Origin: Craspedostauros australis
Lineage: Eukaryota
Assembly: GCA_030167865.1 (NCBI GenBank)
Contig: JALAGF010005628.1
Coordinates: forward strand, 59,173-79,172
Length of the DNA stretch: 20,000 bases
Reading direction: 5' to 3'
Shown: one piece after another, positions 1 to 10,500 of the stretch
Layout: every line of letters begins with the position of its first letter
Numbering within the stretch: position 1 is the first letter of the stretch
The notes under the pieces: generated by a model
Databases searched by the model: none
The model's input: the letters and a program-made list of their open reading frames with translations, nothing else
Told to the model about the DNA's origin: nothing
Made by a program: the position numbers and the translations under genes

Positions 1-3000
1 TGCCTCTGCCGTCACAGGAGGCATCGATAGTGACGGATTGGACGACGTTGGCAGCGGTGCCGATTGAAGTCTCCACGACCAACGAAGATGGGAGGCACTC
101 ATTGCCGGAGGCCTTCACGACGACATCAGCGTTGCCGTTTCTCGATGCAGCGGAAGTCTGGAAGAATGGGTCGCTGCTGTCGCTGCTGAACGCACGAATG
201 ATGACGTCATCAGGGAGAGGTGAGAGGTTGGTGTCAACACATCCTGCGAGGTTTTCACATTTGTTGCCGGTGTAGCGGAGGATGAGTTGGTTGGCGCAGT
301 TGCTGTCGCACATGCATTCCACCTCAGTCTCTCCAAGAAGATCATCGCATGGGATGCTGGTTGCTCCTGTCAATGGGTTTGCGATGACTGCGCAGTCCAA
401 GTCCAGATCGATGGCACAAGTGACGTCAACTTGGAACTCGTACTCATCCTCATCTTGGCACATGTCACCATTCGGTGGATCGGCCTCGACCACAGTCGAC
501 ACCTTGTACACGCCAGGGATGCACACATCCAGAAGCACAACCTCCATGGCTGTGGTGGATTCGCCCGGTGACAGCTCTCTGTCTTCCACGCGGTCAAGGA
601 GGTCGCGGATCACACTGTCTGCCGTCACGTTCAACGCTGTCACGTTCATATCGTCGGTCCCCACATTGCGGAGATCGTACACGTAGGTGATGTCGAGGAA
701 GCAATCCTGGGTATCTCCGTTCACGTCGGAGCAAGCTTCGAGCTCCATGGATCCGAACTTGTCCTTGAGGTTGAGCTCGGAGGATCCGGATGGATCGAAG
801 GTGAGCACCTGGAGGGGCTGGCTTCCCGTGGAAGAANNNNNNNNNNNNNNNNNNNNNNNNNNNNNNNNNNNNNNNNNNNNNNNNNNCTGGAGGGGCTGGC
901 TTCCCGTGGAAGAAAGAGTGCAAGTGACGCTGCTTGGAAGCTGGATGTTGGGCATGGAGGATGAGACGATGAACGTCTCTCCTGCGCCGATCGGTCCGCT
1001 GGTGGTTGTGAGGGGCATCTGGTTGCTTGCATCGACACAGCTCACCACCATCTCACTGACGGTGGTGATGTCGCCTGGCTCGCTGCACACGGATGGCGGC
1101 ATGGGTTGGGTGTTGACGCTGTCGCCGCATGGTGATGGAACGAACTTGAAGCGAGTCTCGGAGATGCTGTCGCCGTCGGAGCACTGGGCAGGGGCCTCAG
1201 TGATCTCCATGCAGTCGCGACCGTTCTCGTCGGTGCATGTGATGTCGACATCGACGCGACATGCCACAGCAATGTCGAAGGTGAATGTTTCGTCATCCTG
1301 GCATGTCGGGCCGAACGGTGGGTCGGCTTCGACACGGACGTTGGTTGTGTATGTGGCGCCCATGCACACGTCCACCACATCGGGTTCGTTGATCTGTACT
1401 TGGTCTCTCACTCCGATGGTCTTGTTTTGGATCAATCCGAAGAGGCTCTCTTCAGCACCGCCGCGCTCGCGGAAGAACAGCGTGACCTCCATGGGAACTT
1501 CGCCGATGTTTCTCAAGAAGTACGAGTAGCTGATGTCGACGAGGCAGTTTCTCTCATCGCCACCGACATCACATGATTCCAGCTGCAGCATTCCGTACTT
1601 GTCCTTGAGGTAGAGATCCATGTTGCCGCTTGTGTCGATGGAGAAGTTCTGGATTTCGTCCCCTCCGCTTGTCACTTCGCAGATGGTTGCAGTTGGCAAA
1701 ACGGTCACGCCATCTCCAATGGTGATGCGATCTCCCACGACGACATTTGTTGCAGGCAGGATCGTGGTTGTGGATGAATCGAAGCAGGTGATGGTCATGG
1801 TGGTTCCTGGTTGTGGCATCGTTCCGGTGTCCTCGCAGAAGGCATCGAGGGGTGTCATTCCGTCGTTGGCAAACATGTACTGAGTGTTGAGACTGTCGTT
1901 GCATGTTCCGCCTGTGACGACGAAGGAGAGTTCGGTGATTGGCTGTCCGGTTGAGCATTGTCCGTCTGGTGATTGCAGGTCTTCGCATGGGATTCCGCCG
2001 GCTGCGTTGCAATCAATGATTGCCTGGTGTGCGCGAATGTGCATGTTCCATTTCGATGAGAATCACGCGTTTGACAGATCACGGGAATGTAAAAACAAAA
2101 GGGTCAGTCGGTTTGCTCTCCTCCAACAATTGTGCGCCTGCTGTGTTGGTGTGGTGATGCCTCTTCAATCTTGTACCATACATGCATCGAGTTGCAGGGA
2201 CGCAGTGAGAGCAAGAACTTACCTCCACAAGGCATTCACCGGGCTCGGTTGGTGTTTGCGAGGGCATCACGGATGGAAGGCTGGATGGGCGTGCGGAGGG
2301 GTTGCTCGATGGATTTTCAGAGGGAGTTGTTGATGGGGTTGGTGACGGTTGGTCGCTTGGCGTGGCACTTGGAGGAGTGCTGGGGGTGCTGGAAGGCGGT
2401 TCACTCGGAGTGACTGACGGGGTTTTCGAGGGAGTTGCCGAAGGCGTGGCCGATGGCGGCACGCTTGGTAGGCTCGAAGGATCCACTGAAGGTGTCGCCG
2501 ATGGTGTTGTTGATGGTGTTGTTGACGGTGTCGCCGATGGTGTTGTTGATGGTGTTGTTGACGGTGTTGTTGACGGTGTTGTTGACGGTGTTGTTGACGG
2601 TGTCGTTGACGGTGTCGTTGATGGTGTCGTTGATGGTGTCGTTGATGGTGTCGCCGAAGGTGTTTTTGAGGGTGTCTCCGAAGGAGTGGCCGATGGTGGC
2701 ACACTTGGATTGCTCGAAGGTTTGACTGAAGGCGTCGATGACGGCGGTTCACTCGGGGTGTCGGACGGTTTCGTTGAAGGTCTTGCCGACGGAACGGGTG
2801 ATGGCATATCCGAAGGTTTGGTAGACGGCCTTGCAGAAGGCGTCGCAGATGGCGGAACCGACGGCTCCTCGGAAACGATGACGCTCTCACCGACTTCCTC
2901 CATTAGCCTTGCGTAAAACTCTTCATCCTCGACGTCGACACCAAGGTTGTCTCCAACATCGCCACGAGGCTGCGCGACCACTGTCAGAATATCAGTTCTG

Positions 3001-3062
3001 CAACAAGACAGCACGACTGTCGTGACGAGGAAGGGAACGAGGCCCTGTGTGCGCAACCTCAT
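1..3062 (-). CDS. Large secreted Cys-rich/PST-repeat (mucin-like) protein, paralogue A; exons 3062..2223 and 2023..<1, 3' end outside window
   Basis: Exon 1 (280 codons) encodes a hydrophobic signal peptide (MRLRTQGLVPFLVTTVVLSCC...), an acidic segment and a PS(A/T)T stalk, ending ...EPGECLVE|GTAAGT. Exon 2 begins after ...CACCAG with AIIDCNAAGGIPCEDLQSPDGQCSTGQP... and is near-identical to paralogue B from position ~1991 down to 1. The ORF track misses exon 2 because it runs off the window without a stop. Confidence 0.88.
837..886. other. Assembly gap (50 N) flanked by a duplicated 28-bp overlap
   Basis: CTGGAGGGGCTGGCTTCCCGTGGAAGAA occurs at 809-836 and again at 887-914. Paralogue B has this stretch once with nothing inserted. 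Confidence 0.92.
2024..2222 (-). other. Spliceosomal intron (199 nt, phase 0) of paralogue A
   Basis: Minus strand GAG|GTAAGT donor at 2222 and CAG|GCA acceptor at 2024. Same codon position (after CLVE) as the intron in paralogue B, and splicing gives a continuous reading frame. Confidence 0.88.
2260..2865 (-). repeat. Coding tetrapeptide repeat (PS-x-T) stalk in exon 1 of paralogue A, including a 12-nt tandem array at ~2503-2650 encoding (PSTT)n
   Basis: + strand GGTG(T)(T/C)GTTGA(T/C) 12-mers in tandem; translation PSTTPSTTPSATPS... Confidence 0.9.
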
Positions 3063-4530: not shown

Positions 4531-6600
4531 ATGCAACCGATCCGAAGCAAAGACGCGCAGCCAAAAGATGTTCAGCACAGGGTGTCGTTGGGCGCGTACA
4601 AGACGGTGAAGAGCCAGGGCGAGTTTCCTTCCATCGGGTCGACGTTGGGGCAGTTCTTCTCGGTTGGCAGGCTGGGAAAGGGGACCTTCTGCAGCATCCA
4701 TCGCTGCATCAATCTCAACCACTTCCACTCGCAGGACCAGCGCCGAAGTGAGAATGATGGCGCCAGCAGCAACGACAGCAACGACAGCAACACCGGCAGC
4801 CATGGTGATGGCTCCAGCAGCAAACGAGTGGTCGCAGCCAAGCTGGAAATCGGGGAGTTCCAAAACTCCGGTGTCCTGGCTGGCGAGGCCGCGATGCTGG
4901 AGTTCTTGGACATGTCGCTGCCAAAAGAAACGGTCCCCTTGTACATGGGGCATCTGCACGAAACAACCAGCAAGGTCGCTGCCATCATCATGGAGTACCT
5001 TCCTGGCAGAGACATGCATCAGATCAGGGACGCCACCACTCGTGGTCGAACACGCCGGCTGACGGTGGAGAATTCTGTGTACCTGACAGCCGACGTCATG
5101 CTGCCGCTGCTGCGTTGTATGCACGAGGTCGGAATCGTCCACCGAGACGTCAAGCCTTCCAACTGCGTCAAGCGGAACGGGAGGCAGTTTGCCATGGTGG
5201 ACTTCGGCCTCTCGAAATCCATCGTCGTGCCCAACGATTCCGCTCTGTCCGATCCCAACCGACCTTGGAAAGGCAAGGATTGGATGAAGCCGGCGAACTG
5301 CGAAGCCGCTGGCCATTACCGCGTGGAGCGCACGAATGCAGATTTCCGCGGGACGAGCATGTACGCATCGCTTCGCATCCATCAATCCAAAGACTACTGT
5401 CCGCGCGACGATCTGTGGAGCCTTCTGTACGTCTTCTGTGATCTGATCGGCGGCGGCCTGCCGTGGATGTCCTACGCAGCCAGCAAGGAGCGCGCTGTGT
5501 GCCACAGCATGAAGGAACGCATCCATGGAGAAATGCCCGGTCAGCCTGATGCCACCCACGAACTGTTGCAAGGATACGAATACCACATCGCCAAAGCGAG
5601 GCTGCAACGTCGCGATGAGAACAACATGCCGCAACAGCTAGAACATGAAGCCAAGGAGTCCCTGCCCGCTCCTCTCAAGATGTCCGAAACTCCCGAGCTT
5701 GTCGGGCTGCTGCGCAAGGCGTTCCAGCACCTGCAAACGCTGGACTTCTGCGACATGCCCGATTATGACCTCGTTCAAAATTGCCTCCGTGGCTTTCTCA
5801 GCGCCCACCACCAGCGCAGCATCGACCACGACGGGAATGGCAAGGTCGTTCCGATCATGTGGGAGAAGAAGCAAGATTCCGCCAAGCCGAATGTGTCAGG
5901 TCTCCCTGCGGCGACTGAAGGCACCAAAATCCCGTACTGGAGGTTGGCGGGGCACGAAGATGACATGCTCACTTCGCAGCAATTCGTCCGCGCTGAAATC
6001 GTCGCAAAGACGGAACAGCCCGCCGATGAGGCCAAGAAGGCCGATGCAAACACCGATGCGTCAGCTGTCAAGAAACTGCCATTGGAACTGCAGTTCCGTC
6101 TCGCTCAGATGGAACACAATGCCAAACATCACACATCGATACCGCACCACATAGCCTTACATGATTGGATGCAAGCAGCGTCGCTCGTCCTGTACATGAA
6201 ATGGGACTCAAAGGCATTTGAAAAAGGTGGCCACCGCAACAACATGGACGGATACCGGAGGGAGAACTTCCTCAGATGCGTCAATCGGTGCTTGAAAGGG
6301 GCAGAGCGGTTTGGATACTTCAAGAACAGAAGCGCGTTGTACAAATCGTCGTCGGCATCAGAAGCGAAAACAAAGACCGAAGGAGACGGATCAAGCGTAG
6401 CACCGGTTGGCTCTCAGACTGCGCACATCAGACACGCCATCGAAACATCTCCGCTTCATAACCAGGACGGTGACGGGCCCAAACCAGCTGTGGACTTGGT
6501 GATGATATCTCGGTTTCTGTTCGGTCTGCGCAAAGCGAAACGAAGGGAAGAGGGGAAGACTTTTGCACCGCCACCAGTTCTGTCGTTCGGAAGTGGATAA
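4531..6600 (+). CDS. Ser/Thr protein kinase, casein kinase 1 group, tau-tubulin kinase (TTBK)-like, 689 aa, apparently intronless
   Basis: Gly-loop LGKGTFCSIH, VAAKLE (catalytic Lys), HRDVKPSN, DFGLSK, FRGTSMYASLRIH (no APE motif, as in CK1), PRDDLWSLLY and LPW. The FRGT..YAS and RDDLWSL.Y signatures fit the TTBK branch. Long non-kinase C-terminal extension. Confidence 0.9.
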   Translation: MQPIRSKDAQPKDVQHRVSLGAYKTVKSQGEFPSIGSTLGQFFSVGRLGKGTFCSIHRCINLNHFHSQDQRRSENDGASSNDSNDSNTGSHGDGSSSKRVVAAKLEIGEFQNSGVLAGEAAMLEFLDMSLPKETVPLYMGHLHETTSKVAAIIMEYLPGRDMHQIRDATTRGRTRRLTVENSVYLTADVMLPLLRCMHEVGIVHRDVKPSNCVKRNGRQFAMVDFGLSKSIVVPNDSALSDPNRPWKGKDWMKPANCEAAGHYRVERTNADFRGTSMYASLRIHQSKDYCPRDDLWSLLYVFCDLIGGGLPWMSYAASKERAVCHSMKERIHGEMPGQPDATHELLQGYEYHIAKARLQRRDENNMPQQLEHEAKESLPAPLKMSETPELVGLLRKAFQHLQTLDFCDMPDYDLVQNCLRGFLSAHHQRSIDHDGNGKVVPIMWEKKQDSAKPNVSGLPAATEGTKIPYWRLAGHEDDMLTSQQFVRAEIVAKTEQPADEAKKADANTDASAVKKLPLELQFRLAQMEHNAKHHTSIPHHIALHDWMQAASLVLYMKWDSKAFEKGGHRNNMDGYRRENFLRCVNRCLKGAERFGYFKNRSALYKSSSASEAKTKTEGDGSSVAPVGSQTAHIRHAIETSPLHNQDGDGPKPAVDLVMISRFLFGLRKAKRREEGKTFAPPPVLSFGSG

Positions 6601-7521
6601 AGATGAGGACGAAGACGAAGACGAGGATGCTATCCTTTTCTACTTCTTGGAACAGAAGCATTGCTCTCGCGCATGCATACCGCATCAACACATTGAGTAG
6701 ATGAAAAGTGGAATCCCGTTGTAGTTGCAGGAGCATCACGTTGTTTCCGACGAACACAATTCTGTCAGAAAACAACACCCCTTCACCAGGAAGGTTCAAT
6801 CATCTTGATCTTGTTCCTCGCACTCATGTCCATACGCGCAGGTACCGCAACACTGCAGGAATGCTTGTGCTCCGCTGGCACTTCCATGAGAATTGAAATT
6901 GGCTTCCAACTTGTCATCTCGGAAGAAACTGTGTTCCAGCATCATCCTCTTTGCTGTGATGATGGGATGTTCGAGAAAGCAGAGTGTGTGCGTAATCCGC
7001 GAGTACACAAGAGCGCCACAATTTGCGCGTTGTGAGTGGTTCAAGTTACTCTGTTATATAATGTTATCCGATTATATGTAGTACTCTAAGGAGACTGCAC
7101 GCCAAGACAGTAATCCAATCCAATTTCTGTCAGGAAGGTCTTGTCGTGATGGTGCGGATTCTGAATTGTTACATGTGGCTATTTTTTGAGTTATGACGTT
7201 GTTGTCAGAGCTGCCAATTTCGAACCTCCCTCACCCGCGGAATCATTCCTTTGGGTGTCTGTTGGTGGTTGGTGCGATGGGTGTGGGAGGCATCTGACAC
7301 AGAGTTATGATTCCTCGTTTGTTCGTGTTTTGTTCGTTGTTAATTCGGTGAAGACAAATGCGCGGAAAGTGAGAGGGAACATGCCACAGACACAACTCTC
7401 TGCGCGAGCCTGTGACGGGTGCGCAAGGTTGGCCGTTCTTCCCGTTCCTCTGCACGTCGCATTTGTCTTCCATTCGGTACGAGGGTGGGGTGATGCGTTG
7501 ATCGTCTACAGTGCATGTGCA

Positions 7522-10500
7522 TTAAGCCACGGAAACGACCAGGATGGCTCTGTCGCGGCATTCGAGGCCGCTGATGGTCGAATTGGCGACAGCTGCGAGC
7601 GCCGCGGAGACACTTCGTCCCTGCGACTCCAACAAGTTGATGGTGAATCTTTCACTTGAGCGGAACTCATCATCGCGGAAGAGGCTGACCGGGGTGTCGA
7701 CCAATTGAACTGGTGGTTGGCTGTTCGCGGCTGTGAGTGCACGAAGACCGCTGAAGAGGGTCGCCTCGAGGGTGATCGGGTTGCGGATGATGTACGTGAA
7801 CTCGATCACCTCCTTGATGAAAGCGAATTCGTCACCTGCCTCGTATCCGAGAAGTTGGAGAGATCCGAACGTGTCCAGAAGCCGGAGCCCGTCTTGGTTA
7901 CGACAGAGGGTGGAGACGCCGGTGAGTTCCTGGATCACATTCCCGCCCTCTTCGTCAAGGATAGTGATGTCGATGGTCTCGACGCCATCTGGAATGGGGA
8001 TGTCGAAGATGTCACCCTCCACCGCGAGTCCGGAGAAGAAAAGAGTGCCGTCACTACCCGCCTCAATGAAGGCATCGTCAGGCTTGGGTATGACGTCGCT
8101 GCCGCACGAGAAGCCGACCATGGTGTTGTTCTGATTGCCACAATTGAGAAGAGGACTGTATGTAAATCCAAGGCGAACGGCCTGAGTGTCGTCGATGATA
8201 CATTGGCTGTTTCGAGGTGCCTCCAGACCTGCGCAGTCGGCTCCTGTGCGGACAAGTATGCATGTGATCTCAGCCTCCAACGCGCATGCGGTTGTGAGAG
8301 GGTCCGGAGTTGGGAAGAGGGATTCGGTCGGCGTCATCGTTGGTTGAAGCGTCTCGAAGATGGCTGGAGGGCGGTTGCCTGCGACGAATTCGAAACGATC
8401 GAATCCGAAGCATCGGCTGCCGTCTTCTGTCCGACCGGTCAAAGTAGTGATGATCACGTAGTTCTGGCGCACAGTCAGGTCCAACTCAAGCACCCCAGAC
8501 GCTTCGATAGGCGGGGAAGTTGAAGTCAGCACCTGGTCGCGCACCTGGTCGGACAGATCTTGAGACTCATCGTTGGTGCTCAAGAACAGGGTCTCAAGGA
8601 TGACGTCGGTGTCAGAGTCGACGTTGATGGGGAAGCTGAGGTCGAAGAAGATCTGCGTGCTGGCGAAGCACGAGACCAGACCCTGTTGCTGATTCTCGAA
8701 GGAGACCAGCTGCACGGCGCCGAAGCGGTCCTTCAGGTACAAGTTCTCAGAGCACGAGCTGTGGTACTTGACGGTCTGGAGACGGTTCTCGGGAGTCACG
8801 ATGGCGTCACGATCAGTCACGTTAGCTGGAATATCGTAGATGGTGATGTTCATATTAGCCGTGAATCTGTTGCTGGCCTGTGTGAGGAAGACGTCTCCAA
8901 CTGTGACGGGTTTGTCATGATACACCTCTCCGCCTCCGAGGGCAAATGCGACGATCCACGATTGTCGTCCTGAGGCTTCGAATGGCGGACCACCGTTGAA
9001 GTCATCGCAAGCAAAGTCTTCGTTGTCTTGGATGTTGAAAGAACCATCACACCCTCCTCCATTGTAGCGGAATTCCATATTGAATGCACGCTGTTCACAT
9101 ATGGGGCGGAACTGCGGGATGTCATCGCAAGAAGGCGCCTGCACACCGCCGATGACGGGCGGCTGGCATTCAACAACGAGCTCGATCTCACACACGTCAG
9201 TGGGCTGTGGACTTGGGACGTCACTGGGCTGATTGGTTGGGTTGGCTGATGGGCTGGGGGACGGCACAGCGGACGGAGTTGCGCTTGGGACTGGCGATGG
9301 CATCGCGCTTGGAGATGCTGATGGTGTGACGCTTGGTGTGGCGCTGGGAGATACCGATGGTGTGGCGCTTGGTGTGACGCTTGGTAATTTTGACGGCGTG
9401 ACACTTGGCGACGCAGAGGGTGGAGTGGAGGGCGAAGTGCTTAAGTCAGTCGATGGCATGGCGCTTGGCGGAGTGGACGGCGTGGCGCTAGGCGACGCAG
9501 AAGGCACGGTGCTTGGTGGAGTACTTGGAGTTCTCGATGGGGATGCGGATGGCGTCGCACTTGGTGATGCTGACGGCGTGGTGCTTGGAGATACTGACGG
9601 TGTGGCACTTGGAGATGCCGATGGTGTAACACTTGGTGATGCCGACGGCGTCGCACTTGGTGATGCTGACGGCGTGGTGCTTGGAGATACTGACGGCATG
9701 GCACTTGGAGTTGCCGATGGTGTAACACTTGGTGATGCGGACGGCGTGGCACTTGGAGATGCGGACGGTGTGGCACTTGGAGATGCGGATGGTGTTGCAC
9801 TCGGTGAGGCAGACGGCGTAGCACTCGGTGTTGCACTCGGAGATGCCGACGGTGTTGCGCTTGGAGATGCGGATGGTGTTGCACTCGGTGTGGCAGACGG
9901 CGTAGCACTCGGTGTGGCACTCGGAGATGCCGACGGTGTTGCACTTGGAGATGCTGACGGCGTGGCGCTTGGAGATGCCGAAGGTGTTGCGCTTGGAGAT
10001 GCGGATGGTGAGGCGGATGGCATGCCGCTCGGCGGTGCACTTGGGGAGGCTGATGGCACACCTGAGGGTGGTGAACTTGGAGCGGGACTTGGGAAAGGAG
10101 TTCCGACCGTCACATCGAAGTTGTACACATCGTTGTCCTCGCAGATGAAGCCATTCACATCCGTCTCAGCGATCACAGAAGCTTCCGCATTGTACCGCTT
10201 CGAAATGCACAGGTCAATCTCGGTCACATCGAAAATGCTCACGGAATCGGCTGGATTGAGCATGGTGCTGCTGAGGTTGGGGAGCAGGTCGGTTGTCATG
10301 CCGTTCAACGAGGTTGACAACGTGGTGATCGTCAAGCCCGTTTCTCCCACATTGCTCACGTCGAACGTGTAGTTGGCGTTGACGAAGCAGTTGTGTGGCT
10401 CCTCGCTCACTCCAGCGCAGGTGTATCCGACGAAGTCGACTGCGCCGAAGGCATCCAGCAAGGTGATGCCTCTGCCGTCACAGGAGGCATCGATGGTGAC

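Follow-up and report, generated by a model that had tools for sequence, protein, structure and literature searches.

The 20-kb stretch of DNA analysed here (hereafter, the window) contains all or part of three paralogous genes, A, B and C, whose middles are 92–98% identical to one another, while the last module of each, module 5, has diverged nearly to saturation at silent sites. The comparison of the three copies provides good support for the view that they are old tandem paralogues whose interiors have been homogenised by ectopic gene conversion, a process that the end of module 5, among other stretches, would have escaped.

The window is the right end of its contig (C5628), which has nothing beyond window position 20000, and the three genes lie head-to-tail in it, all on the minus strand. 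Gene B is complete (12891–7522, with its stop at 7522–7524). Gene A is represented by its 5′ part (1–3062; exon 1 at 3062–2223, an intron at 2222–2024, and modules 1–3) and goes on leftward out of the window to a stop at contig position 53903 (window position −5269), 5.3 kb to the left. Gene C has its stop at 15529–15531, and its upstream end is cut off by the contig end, its stalk (17200–18780) and modules 2–3 (17200–20000 with the stalk) running up to this point. When the genome was searched with the DNA of the core, the DNA of module 1 and the protein sequence of the tip, each query had exactly three matches. The third module-1 match is at the end of another contig (C438, 130370–131844, plus strand), where a member of the family is represented by its exon 1, its intron and its module 1, in an orientation compatible with gene C and ~410 nt short of the end of C5628. 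This sequence is probably the 5′ part of gene C and, if so, it would join C438 to C5628. A protein kinase gene (4531–6600, plus strand; Pkinase E 2e-13), which we take to be casein-kinase-1/tau-tubulin-kinase-like in look, lies between A and B and converges on the 3′ end of gene B. The two 50-N gaps of the window (837–886 and 18947–18996) are bordered by duplicated sequence, i.e., they are unmerged contig overlaps and not true gaps.

The predicted product of gene B has 1744 aa and is encoded by two exons separated by a single GT-AG intron. Exon 1 (12547–12891, minus strand, as are all the features of this gene) codes for a signal-peptide-like hydrophobic start, an acidic stretch and a short PTS run, and it is divergent among A, B and C; it is followed by the predicted intron (12412–12546, 135 nt), by modules 1–3 (10099–12379), by a Pro/Thr/Ser-rich repeat stalk (9193–10098, 302 aa, 74% P+T+S) and by modules 4–5. 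Residues 6–36 are the only hydrophobic window found by hydropathy, no membrane anchor was seen, and the protein has 56 Cys in total. All five module positions are above the Pfam cut-off for DUF7467 (PF24269), with scores for modules 4–5 of 112 bits in B and 126 bits in C (cut-off 27 bits), and 14 of the 14 DUF7467 matches scored in the genome are over this cut-off, 12 of them within the A/B/C cluster. Contig C3465 (10698–11108, plus strand) codes for a small protein that begins like a signal peptide and matches DUF7467 once, apparently without Ig-like partner or stalk. The structure models are confident (pLDDT 90.7 and 93.7), and these, together with the fold search, suggest that the modules are Ig-like sandwiches, each with a DUF7467 domain inserted after the first strand. 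For module 5, the ~100 aligned residues of the fold search extend across the whole module (best Foldseek TMq 0.29; best VIA Z 9.6 over ~103 residues), although a Foldseek search with the two-module model gave only matches of TM 0.08–0.14; the ESM Atlas, where the best score was 0.84, pointed to DUF7507/CARDB/DUF11 clusters, which we take only as a lead. The folds matched are generic Ig-like sandwiches (RbmA, ApaG, CARDB) and indicate no function. The architecture of the protein suggests that it may be secreted and glycosylated, with a role at the surface or in the matrix.

From 9216/17223 down to the stop, B and C can be aligned without gaps at a constant offset of 8007 nt, and it is within this alignment that the similarity changes abruptly. 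In module 4 and the linker (9210–8263 in B; 16268–17217 in C), 49/948 nt and 19/316 aa differ (pS 0.13, dS 0.147, dN 0.027), the same stretch of B differing from A at 75/948 nt. In the tip (8262–7525), the differences amount to 234/738 nt and 80/246 aa (pS 0.68, dS ~1.8, which is near saturation, and dN 0.236), there are no indels, and 7/7 Cys are common to both genes. The tip comprises module 5 past its first β-strand, i.e., the DUF7467 insert and the Ig-like domain, and occupies 7525–8260 in B, where it is defined by the B/C differences, the DUF7467 match and the model of pLDDT 93.7, and 15532–16267 in C. The identity ends at base 8261/16268, closing a run of 71 nt that is identical in B and C (8261–8331; linker end and first strand of module 5) and that was recognised by MaxChi and in the list of identical tracts; the first mismatch (8260/16267) is the silent third base of a Cys codon. 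MaxChi places the B/C break at 8261, with a chi2 of 209 against a maximum of 14 over 200 permutations. The original prediction, which was made by eye, had counted about 18 changes in some 310 aa before the junction and about 80 in some 245 aa after it, with heavy synonymous divergence, neither indels nor lost Cys in the tip, and the switch at 8261 in B and 16268 in C, and all of this is borne out by the measurements. A uniform dS along the gene, which had been named as the result that would speak against such a reading, is not what is found.

The prediction was less accurate in describing the genes as a duplicated pair for, although the duplication itself stands, A is a third paralogue that steps at almost the same place. 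The breaks are at 8261 for B/C and A/C and at 8233 for A/B, and the breakpoints are significant in all pairs (MaxChi 114–209 against permutation maxima of 14–18). The DNA identity among the three tips is 66–77%. When only those codons that encode the same residue in A, B and C are considered, silent variation affects 42/286 in the core and 87/138 in the tip (Fisher p 2e-23). Constraint on the protein as the cause of the core identity can consequently be ruled out, as silent sites, and even an intron (see below), are homogenised too. GC3 is not raised in the core (0.66–0.68, vs 0.63–0.68 in the tip); the signature of GC-biased conversion, which is common in converted regions but not required, is thus absent, and this was counted against the conversion explanation. 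The identical tracts reach 197 nt between the B and C cores and 260 nt in the cluster. The homogenisation of modules with one another inside a single gene was also considered and ruled out, since B's own modules are only 25–33% identical to one another.

Traces of the older divergence can be found along the genes. The core, which had been described as homogenised, is indeed nearly identical, but it is patchy rather than uniform, as an island in the Ig-like part of module 4 (8526–8422) differs at 34/105 nt (32%) between A and B, compared with 41/843 in the rest of the core and 33% in the tip; no codon permutation out of 5000 was as extreme, and p is at most 0.0002 in the three pairs. The patchwise overwriting of a core that had long been divergent would leave just such an island, with a divergence similar to that of the tip. 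The residue changes in the island are mostly specific to A. Moreover, the copy that is the most divergent of the three switches along the core, and there is a low-divergence A/C patch inside the tip (8133–7984; p 0.008 with 50-codon windows, in one of six pair/window tests) that is probably an older conversion.

Similar observations can be made in the 5′ half of the genes. Modules 1–3 are ~97% identical among the three copies, with 19–23/702 nt and 15–21/754 nt differing in pairwise comparisons. The intron of A and that at the end of C438 are identical at 197/200 positions, though the signal peptides differ, while the intron of B does not align with that of A, and B enters the common sequence 33 nt into exon 2, its first codons in this exon (12380–12411) being already divergent from A and C. 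The stalk is 302 aa in B, 527 aa in C and ~1000 aa in A (where there is an assembly gap), and the distal stalk repeats of gene A carry their own Ile-Met-containing variant; this variant and the roughly threefold spread in length indicate that the stalk is only partly homogenised. The flanks of the three genes cannot be aligned and the intergenic DNA is unrepeated, from which we infer that the duplications are old and that simple unequal crossover is less likely. The proposal of an old duplication with a homogenised interior is thus upheld by the step at silent sites, the near-identical intron of A and C438, the unalignable flanks and the remnant island.

According to the explanation that we favour, A, B and C would be head-to-tail paralogues of old origin, coding for a secreted diatom protein that consists of a signal peptide, modules 1–3 of the DUF7467/Ig-like type, a mucin-like Pro/Thr/Ser stalk and modules 4–5. 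The middles of the genes would be held at 92–98% identity by non-crossover (ectopic) gene conversion acting repeatedly. As conversion is expected to require a near-perfect matching run, those stretches that had drifted beyond the tolerated mismatch would drop out and diverge freely, and these would be one internal island and the ends located beside the non-homologous flanks (exon 1, B's intron and module 5). As a block, module 5 would have been lost to conversion, most likely as a consequence of its terminal position and of being the faster-evolving module family-wide, and such a terminal, faster module would place the border at its first strand. All three tips would still be under purifying selection as folded domains, so that their differences need not mean different ligands.

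The outside homologues are informative in this respect. HMMER found 701 representative proteins that match modules 4–5 at E values up to 0.001, many of them ending in the same two modules, but the closest outside relatives are only 42–49% identical, so that the three-gene cluster appears to be lineage-specific among the sequences searched. One of the DUF7467 proteins is Sro4_g003610 of Seminavis robusta; this homologue and the presence of introns in the genes point to a diatom as the source. Module 5 is more divergent than module 4 in 47/47 of the outside homologues that cover both (39.6% vs 28.4%). The ratio between the protein distances of modules 4 and 5, which also speaks for conversion in the core, is 0.15 for B/C, below all of 984 outside pairs (minimum 0.27, median 0.64). 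A search for module 5 among longer proteins, in which 0/7042 candidates passed, is weak, since HMMER found 701. Among 28 metagenome loci, many of them short or redundant, neither a second copy in tandem nor a near-identical core joined to a divergent tip was observed; the failure to find an orthologous cluster of a sister species among these loci was counted against the conversion explanation. By eye, about two modules of the 2486-aa homologue P0006 are duplicated almost exactly within the protein, unlike in B.

Why the tip escaped is a separate question from how the core was homogenised, and here we regard passive escape as probable, though far from certain. The idea that the tip escapes homogenisation holds in the sense that the tip is divergent, but the escape is not unique to it, as the signal-peptide end and the 105-nt island escaped as well. 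To evaluate its feasibility, a toy model was used in which conversion is limited by mismatches and there is no selection against it; the model has free parameters, so that only feasibility can be judged from it. In a first trial with seven settings, terminal escape was observed in 5/84 runs, and with uniform constraint the pattern was obtained in 10/1050 runs over 35 settings, in a narrow band of conversion rates. At rates picked near the threshold, the pattern appeared in 9/240, 33/240 and 58/240 runs for tip replacement rates of 0.15 (uniform constraint), 0.23 (a 1.5-fold faster tip) and 0.30, respectively, with the break at most 60 nt from the module start in 1, 10 and 18 of these runs. The simulations suggest that a step at the module border can be produced with no selection against conversion. 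Two observations were counted against passive escape, namely the position of the border, which in two pairs is within 10 codons of the module start (~18 codons in the remaining pair), and the length of the escaped zone, which is 739 nt at the 3′ end compared with 33 nt beside B's intron, as selection against conversion predicts the same.

This leads to the main alternative, in which the core would be converted in the same manner but module 5 would be kept apart by selection, each tip having its own partner or specificity and incoming conversion tracts being purged. Selection-protected domains have been argued for protocadherin EC2-EC3 and for opsin exon 5. In the present case, the break falls within the first strand of module 5 in all three pairs (module 5 starts at 8286, and the breakpoint corresponds to a strand formed by residues 312–319 of the model), and the escaped zone is long, indel-free and still 66–77% identical in DNA. 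Moreover, the tip is located distally to the mucin-like stalk, its Ig-like fold is of a kind that is common in adhesins, 27/80 of the B/C changes score negative in BLOSUM62, and the faster evolution of the last module across the family could itself reflect a role in specificity. The changes, however, are evenly distributed. No hypervariable patch was found in the tip, where the changes affect 40/126 residues (32%) of the DUF7467 insert and 31/101 (31%) of the Ig-like part, and they avoid the columns that are conserved in the family (rho −0.18, p 0.006). The original prediction had suggested calculating dN/dS on module 5, and no excess of replacement changes was found there, the values being 0.08–0.27 in the tip (unreliable, as dS is near saturation, but far below 1) and 0.17–0.21 in the core, with three sequences giving little power for site tests. 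A low dN/dS is nonetheless compatible with protection, as silent changes also accumulate near protected sites. The escape of the 5′ end and of the internal island, the probable older A/C conversion patch inside the tip and the capacity of the neutral toy model to pin the border at the same place also argue against a protected tip. Consequently, the reading of a constant scaffold with a variable binding tip has no positive support, and protection by selection seems to us unlikely, although it is the most probable of the alternatives. The island (8422–8526; 16429–16533 in C) is flanked on both sides by DNA that would have been converted, as could be anticipated for a site under the protection of selection.

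A second alternative is that the cores were homogenised not by non-crossover conversion but by cycles of unequal crossover, through the expansion and contraction of the array and the formation of chimeric genes. The head-to-tail arrangement, the threefold differences in stalk length and the intron that A shares with the probable 5′ end of C, in spite of their different signal peptides, could all be explained in this way, and, in the part of the source available, unequal crossover is documented for tandem diatom genes, those for alginate lyases (10.1101/2024.08.28.610029). By contrast, crossover would duplicate or delete the DNA between the copies, and in the 50 kb compared there is no repeat of at least 250 nt outside the three genes and the kinase gene located between A and B is present once; in addition, the 5′ and 3′ ends are particular to each gene. 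Thus, of the two processes that the original prediction had named, gene conversion fits the data better than simple crossover, since the intergenic DNA is not duplicated; we consider homogenisation by crossover very unlikely.

Finally, that the near-identical cores are an assembly artefact, produced by the collapse of reads or by a chimeric consensus, is hardly credible, as the cores differ at 49–75/948 sites with an excess of silent changes and sequences as divergent as the tips (23–33% different) would not collapse, even if the assembly is fragmented (65.9 Mb in 6734 contigs), A and C have N gaps, C is at a contig end and some identical tracts, of up to 260 nt, might be long enough for a short-read assembler to confuse the phases. 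A phase swap across identical tracts or N gaps could blur the pairing between 5′ halves and tips, but it would not create the step. The possibility of collapse had been raised from the start, and a separate assembly (X1), which may derive from the same strain or sample and is not an independent organism, did not refute the core identity. Its contig 2 bridges the C junction, carrying 108 nt of core (8261–8368) and the C tip, and past the junction it has diverged sequence of the same length, which agrees with gene C in its loose end and in its mismatch counts (5, 9 and 1, the same as the B/C differences). Contig 1 matches B at 7037–8143 with zero differences but ends short of the B junction, which is not bridged by X1; the regions 8144–8260 and 8369–9260 are covered by neither contig, and for them X1 proves nothing. 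The ends of both contigs are 475–485 nt beyond the stops, as could be the case for transcripts, but X1 is RNA only by guess and does not serve as evidence that the genes are expressed.

In animals and other groups, regional conversion from which a domain has escaped is well known, and in diatoms it looks thinly documented. Fawcett and Innan are said to have reviewed divergence peaks and the ending of concerted evolution in duplicated genes. According to the available part of a review on the subject (PMC3924837), conversion ends when pairing is disrupted by substitutions or indels, or else a region is protected by selection while conversion goes on; the latter is recognised by a peak of divergence that has converted DNA to its left and right. 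Here, the far side of the tip is a non-homologous flank, and only the small island at 8526–8422 has such a shape. Escape from conversion assisted by selection has been argued for CEACAM32, as far as the portion consulted goes (PMC7042247). For diatoms, the accessible text of a 2018 paper states that non-crossover conversion was not found in their genomes (PMC6114903), and a later one, in its available part, describes high mitotic recombination between homologues (10.1101/2020.11.08.373134).

The closest parallel is that of the clustered protocadherins of fugu, since Pcdh2 is described, in the part of the report available, as undergoing regional gene conversion with a discrete border (PMC1852091). 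Both cases involve tandem paralogues that code for modular extracellular β-sandwich proteins, with homogenised and divergent regions and homogenisation of silent sites. However, the converted part of Pcdh2 is >99% identical, its GC3 is raised and EC2-EC3 are reported, in the same portion, to be under diversifying selection, whereas A, B and C are only three copies, with a core identity of 92–98%, a flat GC3, escape at both ends and no positive selection detected. In layout, B is similar to the diatom mucin-like secreted proteins, with an N-terminal signal peptide (by hydropathy only), a PTS stalk and Cys-rich modules. For instance, CaFAP1, CaTrailin4 and Ca5609, in the section of the source consulted (10.1101/2023.03.06.531300), also have a signal peptide, a long PTS-rich region, Cys-containing folded modules and no membrane anchor seen. 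The likeness is one of layout. CAA (PF20597) gave no match in five Pfam scans and the GDPH motif is absent from B. Our literature search, outside which most subscription papers fell, found no paper on DUF7467 and none describing such a cluster of secreted diatom proteins.

A, B and C would consequently be an instance of a known process in an uncharacterised family of secreted diatom proteins, and a clean one, given the three copies, the shared intron and the remnant island. For practical purposes, any dating or read mapping based on the core would misjudge these genes. It is conceivable, although quite unlikely and argued by analogy, that the cluster is a diatom counterpart of the clustered protocadherins, with a converted scaffold, a glycosylated stalk and three protected terminal modules of different specificities for substrates or cell recognition; if this were true, DUF7467 would acquire its first function and the three genes would amount to a natural series of tip swaps, ready for use. 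In any case, one uncharacterised module is available in the cluster in three natural variants, which could be used in functional tests.
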